Below are positions 1 through 4,947 of a stretch of DNA of 4,947 bases, piece after piece. Location: the IMG/VR virus record IMGVR_UViG_2547132273_000019, one strand, 5' to 3'. Numbering within the stretch: position 1 is the first letter of the stretch; each line of letters begins with the position of its first letter. A program made the translations under genes and the position numbers. The stretch is from a virus. Taxonomy: Duplodnaviria; Heunggongvirae; Uroviricota; Caudoviricetes. The notes beneath the pieces are model-generated. The model searched no databases, had not been told where the DNA came from, and saw nothing but the letters and a program-made list of their open reading frames with translations.

Positions 1-83
1 ATCCATGCTGACCTCATTTCCCCTTAACGCTGGGGTAGCGGAACTGTTTGCTGAGAACACCGTGCGGTGTGTTGATGCAAATA

Positions 84-112
84 AGATTAGCCATGGCTAA
101 CATATAGGTCAA
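84..112 (-). promoter_or_regulatory. Leftward sigma70-like promoter (P_L analogue) with an operator palindrome in its spacer
   Basis: Read on the minus strand: -35 TTGACC (plus 107-112), 17-nt spacer, -10 TAATCT (plus 84-89). The perfect 14-bp palindrome TTAGCCATGGCTAA (87-100) overlaps the spacer and -10. Transcription would run toward position 1. Confidence 0.45.
87..100. promoter_or_regulatory. Operator candidate (O_L-like): perfect palindrome TTAGCCATGGCTAA, form TTAGC-N4-GCTAA
   Basis: Perfect 14-bp palindrome. The same half-sites and 4-bp spacing recur at 583-596 and 633-646 on the other side of the repressor gene. Confidence 0.55.
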
Positions 113-122
113 GTGATTTTGT

Positions 123-138
123 ATGTTATGGCTAACAT
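123..138. promoter_or_regulatory. Second left-side inverted repeat ATGTTA-tggc-TAACAT (auxiliary operator candidate)
   Basis: 6-bp arms ATGTTA/TAACAT. It shares the 11-mer ATGGCTAACAT with 93-103. It lies just upstream of the predicted leftward -35. Confidence 0.35.
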
Positions 139-172
139 GATTGATGTGGTAAAAAATAACTCATTGATGATG

Positions 173-580
173 TTATCTTTTATTTGTCCGCTGACGGGCT
201 TTTAGTAATTCTTCAAAGAGTTTATTGAAGTTTTTTACTCGAGCTCGCATTTCGGCGAGCTGGGTATCCTGTTCTGATTCTGGCAGTGCATTAAACAGCT
301 CAAGGAGCTCTAGTTCTTTGGGGGATAAGGCAACTGGCTTCTCAACAGGTGGTGTTGGTTGCTTGTCTTCATCGCCAAATAGAATCCATGTTGGTGAGCA
401 TTGCAATACTTTGCTGAGGGCAAAAAGGTTCTTCCCTGTAGGTTCACTATCATCCCGTTCCCATTGTGATACAGACACATGGGAGATTTTCAGGGCTTTA
501 GCAAGAGACCTTTGGGTGTGTTTGAGGTTTTTCCGACGATACCTAATGCGTTCGCCGATAGTTAAATTTTTTGTTTCCAT
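173..580 (-). CDS. Phage repressor, XRE-family HTH (CI-like), short form without a LexA/S24-type autocleavage domain
   Basis: 135-aa ORF. N-terminal HTH signature TQRSLAKALKISHVSVSQWERDDSEPTGKNLFALSKVLQCSPTWILFG, then a Pro-rich linker and a ~45-aa helical tail. It is divergent from a cro-like gene and flanked on both sides by palindromic operators. ATG at 580-578, stop TAA at 175-173. Confidence 0.85.
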   Translation of the reverse strand: METKNLTIGERIRYRRKNLKHTQRSLAKALKISHVSVSQWERDDSEPTGKNLFALSKVLQCSPTWILFGDEDKQPTPPVEKPVALSPKELELLELFNALPESEQDTQLAEMRARVKNFNKLFEELLKARQRTNKR

Positions 581-582
581 AG

Positions 583-596
583 TTAGCTAATGCTAA
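583..596. promoter_or_regulatory. Operator candidate (O_R-like): TTAGC-taat-GCTAA
   Basis: 14-bp inverted repeat with the same half-sites and 4-bp spacer as 87-100. It abuts the repressor start codon, so it could serve autoregulation or a P_RM-like promoter. Confidence 0.5.
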
Positions 597-602
597 ATCG
601 TA

Positions 603-631
603 TTGACTATGTTTTTGTTAACATCTATTTT
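603..631 (+). promoter_or_regulatory. Rightward sigma70-like promoter (P_R analogue) for the cro-like operon
   Basis: -35 TTGACT (603-608), 17-nt spacer, -10 TATTTT (626-631). The operator 633-646 covers the predicted transcription start. A Shine-Dalgarno AAGGTG (652-657) sits 6 nt before the ATG at 664. Confidence 0.5.
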
Positions 632-632
632 G

Positions 633-646
633 TTAGTCATAACTAA
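633..646. promoter_or_regulatory. Operator candidate (O_R-like): TTAGT-cata-ACTAA, within the longer inverted repeat TTGTTAGT-cata-ACTAACAA (630-649)
   Basis: 8-bp arms over a 20-bp span. The core matches the TTAGY-N4-RCTAA pattern of 87-100 and 583-596. It overlaps the predicted P_R start site. Confidence 0.5.
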
Positions 647-663
647 CAATAAAGGTGTTTTAA

Positions 664-894
664 ATGCTTAAAACTGACGCTCTTTTGTATTTCGGTTCAA
701 AAACAAAACTTGCACAAGCAGCAGGTATTCGTTTGGCTTCGCTTTATAGCTGGAAAGGGGATTTAGTTCCCGAAGGTCGCGCGATGCGTCTACAGGAGGC
801 ATCTGGCGGGGAGCTTCAGTATGATCCCAAAGTTTATGATGAATATCGTAAGACGAAGCGGGCGGGGCGGTTGAACAATGAAAATCACTCCTGA
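664..894 (+). CDS. Cro/YdaS-family HTH DNA-binding protein (Cro analogue)
   Basis: 76 aa. Motif YFGSKTKLAQAAGIRLASLYSWKGDLVPEGRAMRLQEASGGELQYD is typical of Cro/YdaS-type HTH proteins. It is the first gene of the rightward operon, divergent from the repressor, with a good Shine-Dalgarno sequence. Confidence 0.8.
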   Translation: MLKTDALLYFGSKTKLAQAAGIRLASLYSWKGDLVPEGRAMRLQEASGGELQYDPKVYDEYRKTKRAGRLNNENHS

Positions 895-3328: not shown

Positions 3329-4354
3329 ATGCACATTTTATCTGTTTCAAAAAAGGAAGTTGGAAGAGCTGGGGATAGATTAGTTTCTCAGTTTGGTACA
3401 GGTGAAAAATATAAAGAGGAAGATGTACAAATTCTTCATGAGTGGAGGATGTTGCATTTATATCCTTTAAGTAAAATACAATTTTATATGGAAAGAGAGG
3501 CTATTTCCTTAAACAAAAATGCGTTACTATCCTCTAGAATTAAGAGGATGCCTTCCATTGTTACTAAGCTTTCTAGATTTCCTGATATGAAGTTAAATAA
3601 GATGCAGGATCTTGGTGGGTGCCGGGCTATTTTAAATAATCTGGATCAAGTGTATGATTTAGTTAATAAAATAAAATCATCTAAATTCTCACATGAACTA
3701 GTTAGAATGGATGATTACATGATAGACGTGAAAGATTCTGGTTATAGAAGCTTTCATATGGTCTATTCATTCCAAAATAAAAAATTTCCATCTTTAAATG
3801 GGTTGCGCATTGAAATGCAAATAAGAACAGCTATTCAACATAGCTGGGCTACAGCAGTTGAAATGGTTGGTTTGTTTCGAAAGGAATCATTGAAATCTGG
3901 TTTTGGTGATGCAAGATGGCTTAGGTTTTTTGAATTGGTATCAGAGCTTTTTTATAAACTTGAGTATGAAAAAGAACCATCTGGGAGTTATATAAAAATA
4001 TCAGAAGAATTAAGTTATTTATCCGTCGAGTTGAATGTTTTCGATATATTAGCTGCTTACAATGCCGTTGTTAGCCATATTGAGGGTAGCAAAAAATATG
4101 ATAAAGGACTTTGCATAATTGTTGTTGATACCATAAAGCGGAATATAAATATAAAGAGCTTCGAAAATCACAATCATGCGAAGGCGGCAGAAGCTTATGT
4201 CGAGTCTGAAAAATACTGCGCGGAAAATAAAGGCTGTGAAGTGGCTATGGTTTCTGTTAGTTCAATTAGTGAATTAAAAAATGCATATCCTGCTTACTTT
4301 TTAGATACGAAAACTTTTTTAAATTATCTCAGTAGGTATGTTTTTATAAAATAA
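3329..4354 (+). CDS. RelA/SpoT-domain nucleotide pyrophosphokinase (small alarmone synthetase-like) with a C-terminal extension; candidate toxSAS or fused toxin-antitoxin (CapRel-like) defence protein
   Basis: 341 aa. Synthetase-fold motifs in order: RIKRMPSIVTKLSR (R-x-K-x3-S-I-x2-K), QDLGGCRAIL, DDYMIDVKDSGYRSFHMVY (compare NGYQSIHTVV in RelA) and EMQIRTAIQHSWA (compare EIQIRT...H). About 115-150 residues follow the SAS core. Hand counts of sample 60-nt lines give about 23-30% G+C inside the gene against about 53% in the replication gene. Confidence 0.85.
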   Translation: MHILSVSKKEVGRAGDRLVSQFGTGEKYKEEDVQILHEWRMLHLYPLSKIQFYMEREAISLNKNALLSSRIKRMPSIVTKLSRFPDMKLNKMQDLGGCRAILNNLDQVYDLVNKIKSSKFSHELVRMDDYMIDVKDSGYRSFHMVYSFQNKKFPSLNGLRIEMQIRTAIQHSWATAVEMVGLFRKESLKSGFGDARWLRFFELVSELFYKLEYEKEPSGSYIKISEELSYLSVELNVFDILAAYNAVVSHIEGSKKYDKGLCIIVVDTIKRNINIKSFENHNHAKAAEAYVESEKYCAENKGCEVAMVSVSSISELKNAYPAYFLDTKTFLNYLSRYVFIK

Positions 4355-4877: not shown

Positions 4878-4947
4878 TTTCATATTGGCGAGGTAAAGGT
4901 AGTTAAGTAGAATGGCTGCGGGTGCTTGAGGCTATCTGCCTCGGGCA

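Follow-up and report, generated by a model that had tools for sequence, protein, structure and literature searches.

Gene Content of the Locus

The viral DNA analyzed here (4,947 nucleotides, hereafter the window) carries near its left end two divergent genes, with boundaries at positions 580 and 664, separated by an intergenic region of approximately 83 bp. The leftward gene, dicA (173-580, minus strand), encodes a repressor of 135 amino acids with an N-terminal HTH like that of P22 c2. The rightward gene, dicC (664-894, plus strand), encodes a Cro-like regulator of 76 amino acids and has a ribosome-binding site, AAAGGTG, upstream at 651-657. The repressor was identified as DicA by the NCBIfam model NF007257 (235.6 bits; cut-off 101) and is 99% identical to DicA of K-12. 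It also matches HTH_3 and Phage_CI_repr in Pfam, and its N-terminus matches the DNA-binding domain of P22 c2 (PDB 1adr, 2r1j, and 3jxb; E values of 8e-20 to 2e-19). When Peptidase_S24, the LexA-like autocleavage domain, was sought by Pfam in the 135-residue protein, no match was obtained, and according to the literature the Ala-Gly cleavage site is absent from DicA. The Cro-like protein was identified as DicC (NF007282, 159.5 bits; cut-off 130), exceeds the threshold of the Pfam family P22_Cro with 44.1 bits and is 100% identical to DicC of K-12. A terminator-like hairpin at 186-199 (plus strand) was set aside: its stem is 5 bp long, and it falls within the coding region of dicA on a strand that is the wrong one for that gene.

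At the left edge, ydfA, with which the dicB operon (ydfABC-dicF-dicB-ydfD) begins, is truncated by the window edge and is represented by its start codon and first codons (positions 1-6, minus strand). Positions 1-900 correspond to the dicA/dicC/ydfA-leader region, and they are 100% identical to Escherichia coli SCU-152, in which dicA, dicC, and ydfA are annotated in RefSeq. There, ydfA ends at locus position 6006 (window position 6), and dicB and ydfD are found further to the left of ydfA. The same 900 positions are approximately 98% identical to K-12 MG1655, whose cryptic Qin (Kim) prophage carries the same locus, with ydfA likewise following dicA (Yun et al., 2012, PMC3441716; Ragunathan et al., 2023, PMC10448788); approximately 14 of 700 positions differ between the two. 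To the right of dicC, the window carries intact YdaT-family, O-like and DUF977 genes and a RelA/SpoT-domain gene, whereas K-12 retains only the ydfX/ydfW remnants. The order of repressor, cro, cII-like gene and O-like gene with iterons is that of lambdoid phages.

The Pfam names YdaS_toxin and YdaT_toxin raise the question of whether the locus could be a YdaS/YdaT-type toxin-antitoxin cassette, with palindromes serving as autoregulatory antitoxin sites and not as immunity operators. DicC does match YdaS_toxin weakly in Pfam (18.3 bits; cut-off 30), and the downstream protein of 173 amino acids matches YdaT_toxin with 27.5 bits. However, DicC is above threshold for both P22_Cro and its own NCBIfam model, the gene order is lambdoid, the operator layout aligns with P22 O_R and DicC-dependent bistability has been demonstrated in K-12 (PMC10448788). 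We thus consider a toxin-antitoxin cassette very improbable, and the genes are treated below as parts of an immunity region.

Right Operators and the Divergent Promoters

An earlier note, made from the sequence alone, had proposed a complete O_L/O_R-type immunity switch at this locus, with three sites of the form TTAGY-N4-RCTAA. These sites are present exactly as claimed, at 87-100 (TTAGCCATGGCTAA, a perfect palindrome), 583-596 (TTAGCTAATGCTAA) and 633-646 (TTAGTCATAACTAA). The pattern was found nowhere else in the 4,947 bases and in none of 200 dinucleotide-preserving shuffles. When it was extended to 18 bp (TGTTAGY-N4-RCTAACA) and scored out of 14, three sites reached at least 12/14 against 0.076 expected, all of them within 85-648. 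The right-hand sites, one of them missed by the earlier note, are centered at 589.5, 614.5 and 639.5, and we refer to them as Oa, Om, and Oc, the names given in PMC3441716.

Oc (630-649, TTGTTAGTCATAACTAACAA; core 633-646) is a strong, O_R1-like operator that scores 14/14 and covers the -10 end and the +1 of the dicC promoter. Window positions 630-649 are exactly the 20-mer that was cloned as Oc in K-12, where DicA was shown to bind it both in vivo and in a crude-extract EMSA, and where a single A-to-C change abolished DicA binding and DicA-dependent repression (PMC3441716). In the same study, DicA at Oc repressed dicC, and transcription of dicA needed Oc. By annotation, the DicA site extends from -8 to +12 of dicCp, so the +1 of this promoter would fall at approximately position 638 of the window. 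At first sight the 20-mer published as Oc does not match K-12, but this is a strand effect only: the K-12 site equals the 20-mer in the dicA direction, and in the window the published 20-mer reads in the dicC direction. The asymmetric central 4 bp are inverted, being CATA in the window and TATG in K-12 in the same orientation, and Oc differs from K-12 at two central bases.

The dicC promoter itself, dicCp (603-631, plus strand), is P_R-like and consists of a -35 TTGACT (603-608), a spacer of 17 nucleotides and a -10 TATTTT (626-631; TATCTT in K-12, a difference of one base). The rightward promoter that had been proposed to drive the cro-like gene is thereby borne out, as both hexamers are present, a promoter scan matched them, and the dicC promoter and its start site have been mapped by 5'RACE in K-12 (PMC3441716). 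The scan gave one promoter-like match in 900 bases compared with 1.6 expected, which alone is not above chance, and the support for the promoters therefore comes from their position, their conservation and the published mapping. The -35 hexamer is identical in K-12 and invariant in all relatives and in P22.

The repressor promoter, dicAp (583-618, minus strand), is P_RM-like, with its +1 at 583, a leader of 3 nucleotides, the -10 TAGCAT (595 to 590) and a poor -35, ACAAAA (618 to 613). The start site of dicA in K-12 was reported 3 nucleotides 5' of the ATG (PMC4681348, Table S3). It corresponds to window position 583 and puts TAGCAT (ATGCTA at plus 590-595) at exactly -12 to -7, so the near-leaderless promoter suggested from the sequence is in agreement with experiment. 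This stretch is identical in the window and K-12, no Shine-Dalgarno sequence was found 5' of the dicA ATG, and the -10 aligns with the annotated P_RM -10 of P22, TAAGAT. The start sites of dicAp and dicCp are approximately 55 bp apart.

Oa (581-598, AGTTAGCTAATGCTAAAT; core 583-596) is O_R3-like and covers the +1 and -10 of dicAp. It abuts the repressor start as had been noted, the ATG occupying 580-578 with a gap of 2 nucleotides. It lacks the outer TG/CA bases (AGTTAG...CTAAAT) and scores 11/14; the core is unchanged across five diverged immunity types, in all of which it adjoins the repressor ATG. Om (606-623, ACTATGTTTTTGTTAACA), named so by Yun et al. (PMC3441716), is a weak, O_R2-like site in the dicCp spacer, exactly midway between the other two (25 bp from each). 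It belongs to the repeat family D1 and aligns with O_R2 of P22, and its score of 9/14 is by sequence no better than chance. Both sites are identical in K-12, where, according to an observation mentioned as "data not shown" (PMC3441716), DicA did not bind either of them when it was cloned singly and assayed with a reporter in vivo. DicA may thus need cooperativity to occupy 583-596, or may not occupy it. The proposal that the operators form one family holds at the sequence level, but since DicA failed to bind isolated Oa and Om, it need not extend to equal occupancy by DicA.

These data also allow for an asymmetric or partly decayed switch, in which only Oc, and perhaps the left sites, would be true DicA operators, Oa would be DicC-only or a relic and Om would be non-functional; if so, the "three sites of one family" would not be functionally equivalent. 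Apart from the reporter result, the incomplete scores of Oa (11/14, outer TG/CA missing) and Om (9/14) agree with such an arrangement, as does the strong repression of dicA by DicC, given that Oa covers the +1 and -10 of dicAp. However, the invariance of the Oa core in five immunity types argues for selection, by either protein, and the negative result comes from a single-site reporter assay. Moreover, O_R3-type sites in lambda and P22 are typically weak and depend on high repressor levels or on cooperativity. Overall, an asymmetric switch appears to us possible but rather unlikely, and we retain a tripartite right operator, with divergent P_R-like and P_RM-like promoters and a weak middle site, as the preferred reading.

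Predicted Left Operators, dicBp, and the Predicted Leader

The P_L-like promoter of the dicB operon, dicBp, was found at 84-112 (minus strand), with a -35 TTGACC (112 to 107), a spacer of 17 nucleotides and a -10 TAATCT (89 to 84). The earlier description of a leftward promoter with the site 87-100 in its spacer is therefore accurate, the hexamers reading GGTCAA (107-112) and AGATTA (84-89) on the plus strand. dicBp falls below the threshold of the promoter scan because its -10 matches at only three of six positions. The arrangement TTGnnn-N17/18-TAnnnT is nevertheless kept in Citrobacter, Serratia, E. coli 104, phage PPompW, and a Klebsiella phage. In K-12, DicA represses dicBp 22-fold, as seen from derepression in a dicA deletion (PMC10448788).

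Two predicted operators lie on this side. Left operator 1 (85-102, GATTAGCCATGGCTAACA; core 87-100; 12/14) is located in the dicBp spacer and overlaps the -10; it is a perfect palindrome in the window and has one mismatch in K-12, and its TTAG/CTAA core is identical in the diverged E. coli 104 cassette. Left operator 2 (120-137, TGTATGTTATGGCTAACA; 12/14) lies 35 bp from operator 1, upstream of the dicBp -35. Its right half-site is kept in all relatives, and the E. coli 104 site aligned to it is a full TGTTAGATTGATCTAACA. In K-12, a DicC ChIP peak is found on the left-operator side of dicA (PMC11430063). In Reg-Seq, the place where DicA binds at dicB is entered as unknown or low-evidence, so the left sites rest on sequence, conservation and the resolution of the ChIP peak, and 85-102 and 120-137 are best described as predicted DicA sites at dicBp. 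The earlier account of the switch was incomplete, as it overlooked Om and left operator 2. No third left site scoring at least 10/14 was detected in the window, and none was detected in any relative. According to later literature, three operators on each side were reported by Bejar in 1988.

Judging from the -10 hexamer at 84-89, transcription from dicBp would start at approximately 76-77, and a search of a dRNA-seq supplement for a published start site yielded nothing. The predicted 5' leader of the dicB operon (7-77, minus strand) contains two small conserved hairpins and the motif GTTCCGC. It is conserved across diverged relatives with weak covariation, and positions 1-900 gave no match in Rfam.

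Conservation of the Operators Across Diverged Cassettes

A scan of contigs with DicA returned six loci, from which those of Christensenella and Stenotrophomonas were left out as too distant. In E. coli 104, the cassette corresponding to positions ~75 to 775 is only approximately 58% identical to the window. Still, the TTAG/CTAA cores of the three sites are unchanged there at all 24 positions, compared with 52% of other non-coding positions (Fisher p = 8e-7). Furthermore, in Citrobacter, Serratia, phage PPompW, and the Klebsiella phage, sites and promoter hexamers occur at the same positions.

This pattern bears on whether the palindromes could be chance occurrences in AT-rich intergenic DNA or sites of nucleoid proteins such as H-NS/Cnu. 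The region is indeed AT-rich, DicA binding responds to H-NS/Cnu, and crude extract contains an unidentified protein that shifts the promoter fragment. However, neither the shuffling result nor the retention of the cores in so diverged a cassette fits with chance, and for Oc the idea is refuted by the single base change that abolishes DicA-dependent repression. We therefore give it practically no credence.

The core TTAG-N6-CTAA appears common to DicA-family repressors of several immunity types, which differ only at positions 5/10 and in the outer flank: the half-site is TGTTAGY in the window, TGTTAGR in E. coli 104 and CCTTAGG in phage PPompW and the Klebsiella phage. The immunity types also differ in HTH residues (SHVSV vs. 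AHVTI; TQR vs. SQA). Such natural cassette swaps, in which the cores are kept and neighboring bases are changed, constitute a ready-made series for studies of operator specificity in the DicA repressor family.

Comparison With P22, Lambda, and Other Prophages

The closest parallel outside Qin is the immC region of P22. The N-terminal domain of P22 c2 is approximately 59% identical to DicA residues 8-70, and the repressor ATG, O_R3/O_R2/O_R1, the P_R -35 TTGACT and the P_RM -10 align column for column with the window. Both systems have an 18-bp operator with an uncontacted 4-bp center, a Cro of the P22_Cro family and a near-leaderless repressor mRNA (leader of 4 nucleotides in P22 and 3 in the window). 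They differ in the half-site, which is TGTTAG in the window and ATTTAAG in P22, in the C-terminal part of the repressor, which is short, unrelated and devoid of an S24 peptidase domain in the 135-residue DicA, and in the number of left sites, two being detected in the window as opposed to three (O_L1-3) in P22. A MAFFT alignment of the left region to O_L of P22 contained long gaps and was uninformative.

With lambda, the window shares the logic of CI/Cro: a repressor gene between two outward early promoters, each with operators of one family, a weak, activated, leaderless repressor promoter divergent from the cro promoter, counter-repression by Cro, and bistability. There is no homology of operator sequence, the divergent promoters of the window are more compact, and its O_R3-like site covers the +1 and -10, whereas that of lambda lies in the -10/-35 spacer. 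Unlike lambda, the window has no SOS-cleavable repressor. In this regard it resembles, by description, Gifsy (GfoR and GfhR) and the racR-ydaS-ydaT region of Rac, which likewise have short, non-cleavable HTH repressors relieved by antirepressors. The racR mRNA is also leaderless, and the layout downstream is likewise a Cro-like gene and then YdaT/CII-like genes. The Gifsy and Rac repressors, again by description, belong to other families than DicA and have other operators.

The DicA/DicC Switch

Taken together, the region very probably represents the immunity module of a Qin-type lambdoid prophage of E. coli, forming a bistable switch in the manner of P22 and lambda. Each element of the proposed O_L/O_R-type arrangement matches the characterized dicA-dicC locus by sequence identity and published K-12 experiments; the deduction is correct and the switch real, yet already published. 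Reportedly, dicA/dicC/dicB have been described as a lambdoid immunity locus since the work of Bejar and colleagues in 1986-1988, and later experiments have tested the main operator, the bistability and the two start sites that lie between dicA and dicC. Therefore, little weight is attached to the finding as a discovery. It shows that a genuine switch could be recognized from sequence alone, with the -10 of its leaderless repressor promoter correctly placed, and it assigns coordinates to five operator sites and three promoters in the variant found in the window.

Based on the K-12 data, which for the allele of the window are carried over by similarity, the regulation by DicA and DicC very probably proceeds as follows. 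DicA dimers would bind 18-bp operators of the form TGTTAGY-N4-RCTAACA. As Oc covers the -10 end and +1 of dicCp, DicA bound there would shut off dicC and the early-right operon, including the YdaT/CII-like gene and the O-like replication gene, and it would also be required for transcription of dicA from its promoter of good -10 and poor -35. Through the two left sites, which lie in and just upstream of dicBp, DicA would silence ydfABC-dicF-dicB-ydfD. Since DicA has no S24 domain, it is not RecA-cleavable, and its inactivation would proceed through the Rem antirepressor, which acts in the DicA/DicC switch (PMC10448788), or by stochastic loss. DicC would then be made, bind the same operator regions, repress dicA and lock the "on" state. 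Its preferred site is probably Oa, given the position of this operator over the -10 and +1 of dicAp; the roles of both Oa and Om are predicted ones.

The part assigned to DicC is consistent with data from K-12, where it represses dicA 48- to 84-fold, where its strongest ChIP-seq binding is on either side of dicA, and where its ChIP-seq motif is the palindromic TT(A/C/T)G...C(G/A/T)AA (PMC11430063). A gSELEX paper gives the targets of DicA and DicC as lists only, and binding data are absent from a paper on DicC of O157:H7.

Single E. coli genomes contain up to seven related places, so that Qin-like prophages sharing a host might show partial cross-repression, also in the control of the toxic dicB/dicF operon, with a few bases and HTH residues setting heteroimmunity; we put this forward as a speculative idea that is, on balance, doubtful. 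Finally, DicA might loop the DNA from the left to the right operators, across a distance of approximately 545 bp.

Identity of the locus

The O_L/O_R-type immunity switch that an earlier note had read from the sequence matches the dicA-dicC-dicBp locus, both by identity and by published experiments in K-12. It is thus supported that the feature is the known immunity switch of Qin-type prophages and not a new one. Positions 1-900 are 100% identical to the chromosome of E. coli SCU-152, where dicA, dicC, a YdaT-family gene and ydfA (the first gene of the dicB operon) are annotated, and, of 5426 complete E. coli genomes, 3693 contain related sequence. Approximately 14 of the first 700 positions are different in Qin, the cryptic prophage of K-12 MG1655. 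The repressor DicA scored 235.6 bits against the NCBIfam DicA model (cut-off 101), while the cro-like DicC scored 159.5 bits against its own model (cut-off 130) and also exceeded the Pfam P22_Cro threshold. Among solved structures, DicA comes closest to the N-terminal domain of P22 c2 and to the complexes of this domain with its operators (E 8e-20), and the Pfam search of DicA returned HTH-type matches only, with no S24 peptidase domain. In a phage record, PhiR42_1 (48.7 kb), a 99.3% identical repressor is accompanied by cro, cII-like and O-like genes. A toxin-antitoxin cassette, a reading derived from the Pfam names YdaS/YdaT, is not supported, given the P22_Cro and DicC models, the alignment with P22 O_R and the bistability of the switch. 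A DicA 100% identical to that of the window is also encoded on a 2.5-kb contig labeled 'MAG: Collinsella sp.' (JAIIUG010000151.1), a contig that almost certainly stems from an E. coli prophage and was mis-binned into an actinobacterial MAG.

Operators and promoters

As claimed previously, the pattern TTAGYNNNNRCTAA matches exactly three times in the whole window, at 87-100 (TTAGCCATGGCTAA, a palindrome without mismatch), 583-596 (TTAGCTAATGCTAA) and 633-646 (TTAGTCATAACTAA). No match appeared in any of 200 dinucleotide-preserving shuffles, which together with the core conservation in E. coli strain 104 excludes a chance origin of the palindromes. Repeat analysis placed 122-138 and 608-624 in the same family, both absent from the original list. 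Scanning with an 18-bp form, TGTTAGY-N4-RCTAACA (scored out of 14), ranked the right-hand operators as Oc (631-648, 14/14), Oa (581-598, 11/14) and Om (606-623, 9/14), and gave 12/14 to both left operator 1 (85-102) and left operator 2 (120-137); Om and left operator 2 had not been listed before. Three sites reached at least 12/14 against 0.076 expected from shuffles, and every site of at least 11/14 falls within 85-648. The right-hand sites are spaced by 25 and 25 bp from centre to centre and the left-hand pair by 35 bp.

The promoters proposed earlier were also located. The leftward one, TTGACC-N17-TAATCT, lies on the minus strand from 112 to 84, with left operator 2 situated 10 bp upstream of this dicBp -35. 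The rightward one, TTGACT-N17-TATTTT (603-631, plus strand), is the sole promoter-like match of a consensus scan of 1-900, a single match not above chance by itself; downstream of it lies the 76-aa ORF of dicC (664-894, plus strand). The repressor -10, TAGCAT, was found on the minus strand from 595 to 590, and site 583-596 does adjoin the repressor start, the 135-aa ORF of dicA (173-580, minus strand) beginning 2 nt away.

Experimental evidence from K-12

Oc was cloned as the 20-mer TTGTTAGTCATAACTAACAA (Yun et al., 2012; PMC3441716), which corresponds letter for letter to window 630-649. In that study, DicA repressed a reporter in vivo via the cloned Oc, a crude DicA extract shifted a 90-bp promoter fragment, and a single A-to-C change in Oc abolished the DicA effect. 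Survivors carrying the promoter on high-copy clones were obtained only with Oc mutations. Furthermore, the dicC start was mapped with 5'RACE, dicA transcription was found to require DicA, and dicC to be repressed by it. A Reg-Seq preprint (2025/26) observed the same titration toxicity and annotated the DicA site at -8 to +12 of dicCp, the dicC promoter, which puts its +1 at approximately window 638. In an earlier Reg-Seq paper, the site of DicA was recovered at dicC but listed as unknown at dicB, and no start site was seen within its dicA window. The dicA mRNA leader is 3 nt (Romero et al., Table S3; PMC4681348) and this stretch is identical in the window and K-12, so that dicA starts at window 583. 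TAGCAT is thereby placed at exactly -12 to -7, in agreement with the near-leaderless repressor promoter suggested before.

Yun et al. (2012) also predicted Om and Oa from sequence, but DicA did not bind either when cloned alone (data not shown). It could be argued that Oc is the only DicA site, the more so as Oa and Om are the weakest matches to the 18-bp pattern. However, the cores and positions of both are kept across immunity types, and we consider this reading rather unlikely. An O_R3/O_R2-like role of Oa and Om that needs cooperativity, or a preference of these sites for DicC, fits all data.

Regarding the switch itself, deletion of dicA raises dicBp activity 22-fold, and dicBp switches on spontaneously in approximately 1% of cells in a DicC-dependent, RecA-independent manner (Ragunathan et al., 2023; PMC10448788). 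The same study reports that Rem, a Qin protein, is an antirepressor, and states, after Bejar 1988, that the locus has operators like those of lambda P_R and P_L. A DicC ChIP-seq study found the palindromic motif TT(A/C/T)G...C(G/A/T)AA and a 48- to 84-fold repression of dicA upon DicC induction (PMC11430063). It has been shown in K-12 that DicC occupies both sides of dicA and that the switch is bistable (PMC11430063; PMC10448788).

The window allele and K-12 differ at two bases in the centre of Oc, one in the -10 and four in the left sites; the K-12 behavior presumably transfers to it. The central 4 bp of Oc (638-641) are asymmetric; read in one and the same direction, they are CATA in the window and TATG in K-12. 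These two transitions turn Oc into its own reverse complement, and the published 20-mer, which is the K-12 site on the dicA strand, equals the window site on the dicC strand.

Proposed mechanism

DicA dimers, like c2, recognise 18-bp operators whose central 4 bp are not contacted. Oc covers -7 to +11 of dicCp, so that DicA there blocks dicC and the early-right operon; its occupancy is also required for dicAp, the dicA promoter, with its good -10 and poor -35 (ACAAAA). Om lies across the spacer of dicCp and the -35 region of dicAp. Oa covers +1 and -10 of dicAp, where DicC or excess DicA would switch off dicA. Left operator 1 is located within the dicBp spacer and -10, and left operator 2 upstream of the -35. 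We infer these functions of Om and Oa, the exact DicA and DicC sites at dicBp, and a dicBp start at approximately 76-77. Since DicA lacks a cleavable domain, induction proceeds via Rem or stochastic loss, after which DicC locks the on-state.

Comparison with P22 and related prophages

The P22 c2-cro intergenic region was aligned with window 560-680, using an annotated P22 record in which O_R1-3, P_R, P_RM, the first nucleotide of the RM transcript and O_L/P_L are marked. The dicA ATG aligns with the c2 ATG, Oa with O_R3, Om with O_R2 and Oc with O_R1, while TTGACT is identical to the P_R -35 and TAGCAT aligns with the P_RM -10, TAAGAT. The annotated RM transcript of P22 begins 4 nt before the c2 ATG. 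In function the locus resembles P22 immC, with which it shares homology of the DNA-binding domain and of the O_R layout. As its repressor has no S24 domain, the switch falls outside the RecA-cleavable c2/CI class.

E. coli strain 104 (L009 1575-2270 against window 75-775) is 96-99% identical left of approximately 75 and right of approximately 775, and only about 58% identical in between (DicA 57%). The right joint lies inside dicC, the two DicC proteins differing in the N-terminal HTH half and being identical from approximately residue 37. This is a natural mosaic swap of the immunity cassette with sharp joints. Within the non-coding parts of the cassette, the TTAG/CTAA cores of the three originally listed sites are the same at 24 of 24 positions, compared with 52% of other positions (Fisher p = 8e-7), and the counterpart of 120-137 is a full TGTTAGATTGATCTAACA.

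The layout is shared by Citrobacter, Serratia, phage PPompW and a Klebsiella phage, whose DicA identities are 74%, 65%, 63% and 53%, respectively. In all four, one site adjoins the repressor ATG, the -35 TTGACT is unchanged, a single strong palindrome lies directly past the -10, and the repressor gene is followed by two sites, of which the first is within the spacer of a TTGnnn-N17/18-TAnnnT promoter directed away from the repressor. The core-flanking bases vary by type (TGTTAGY in the window, TGTTAGR in strain 104, CCTTAGG in PPompW and the Klebsiella phage) and HTH residues vary in parallel (SHVSV vs AHVTI; TQR vs SQA), a parallel which suggests possible specificity determinants.

Neighboring elements

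The dicB-operon leader (7-77, minus strand) contains a conserved CATCAA and two hairpins, ACACC-GCAC-GGTGT (4-5 bp) and the invariant GTTCCGC...GCG, the latter with TTAAGGGG after it. All of this is kept in relatives with diverged surroundings, and a few of the changes are compensatory (2 of 8 pairs). No Rfam match was found for the leader, which could be an antitermination element of nut or put type, or a processing element.

The early-right operon is closely packed, with overlapping genes: the YdaT-family (CII-like) gene (878-1399) shares 17 nt (878-894) with the end of dicC, and the O-like gene, with its ATG at 1380, shares 20 nt with the end of the YdaT-family gene. The 321-aa O-like replication protein (1380-2345) had no match in Pfam, NCBIfam or PADLOC. 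Its gene contains five 23-nt direct repeats (1724-1839, consensus approximately CATCrGkTCAAAATGnnnCGmTs, spacing 23-24 nt), followed by three 12-nt repeats (1843-1881). From its repeat structure, 1724-1881 looks like an iteron-type origin within the initiator gene, as in lambda.

Further downstream, 3329-4354 (plus strand) encodes a 341-aa RelA/SpoT-domain protein (PF04607, E 4e-18) with a match to PDC-S33, a candidate defence family of PADLOC (E 5e-119). Its gene lies within an AT-rich insert between a DUF977 gene and hokD, a position where SCU-152 has a gene for an FRG-domain protein in the opposite orientation, and which resembles a variable slot for defence or 'moron' genes. Finally, 4920-4947 (plus strand) matches the 5' part of a sok-type antitoxin RNA, cut at the window edge, with a score that does not reach the gathering threshold (23.5 bits, E 0.029), in agreement with the location of hokD approximately 140 nt past the window end in related genomes.
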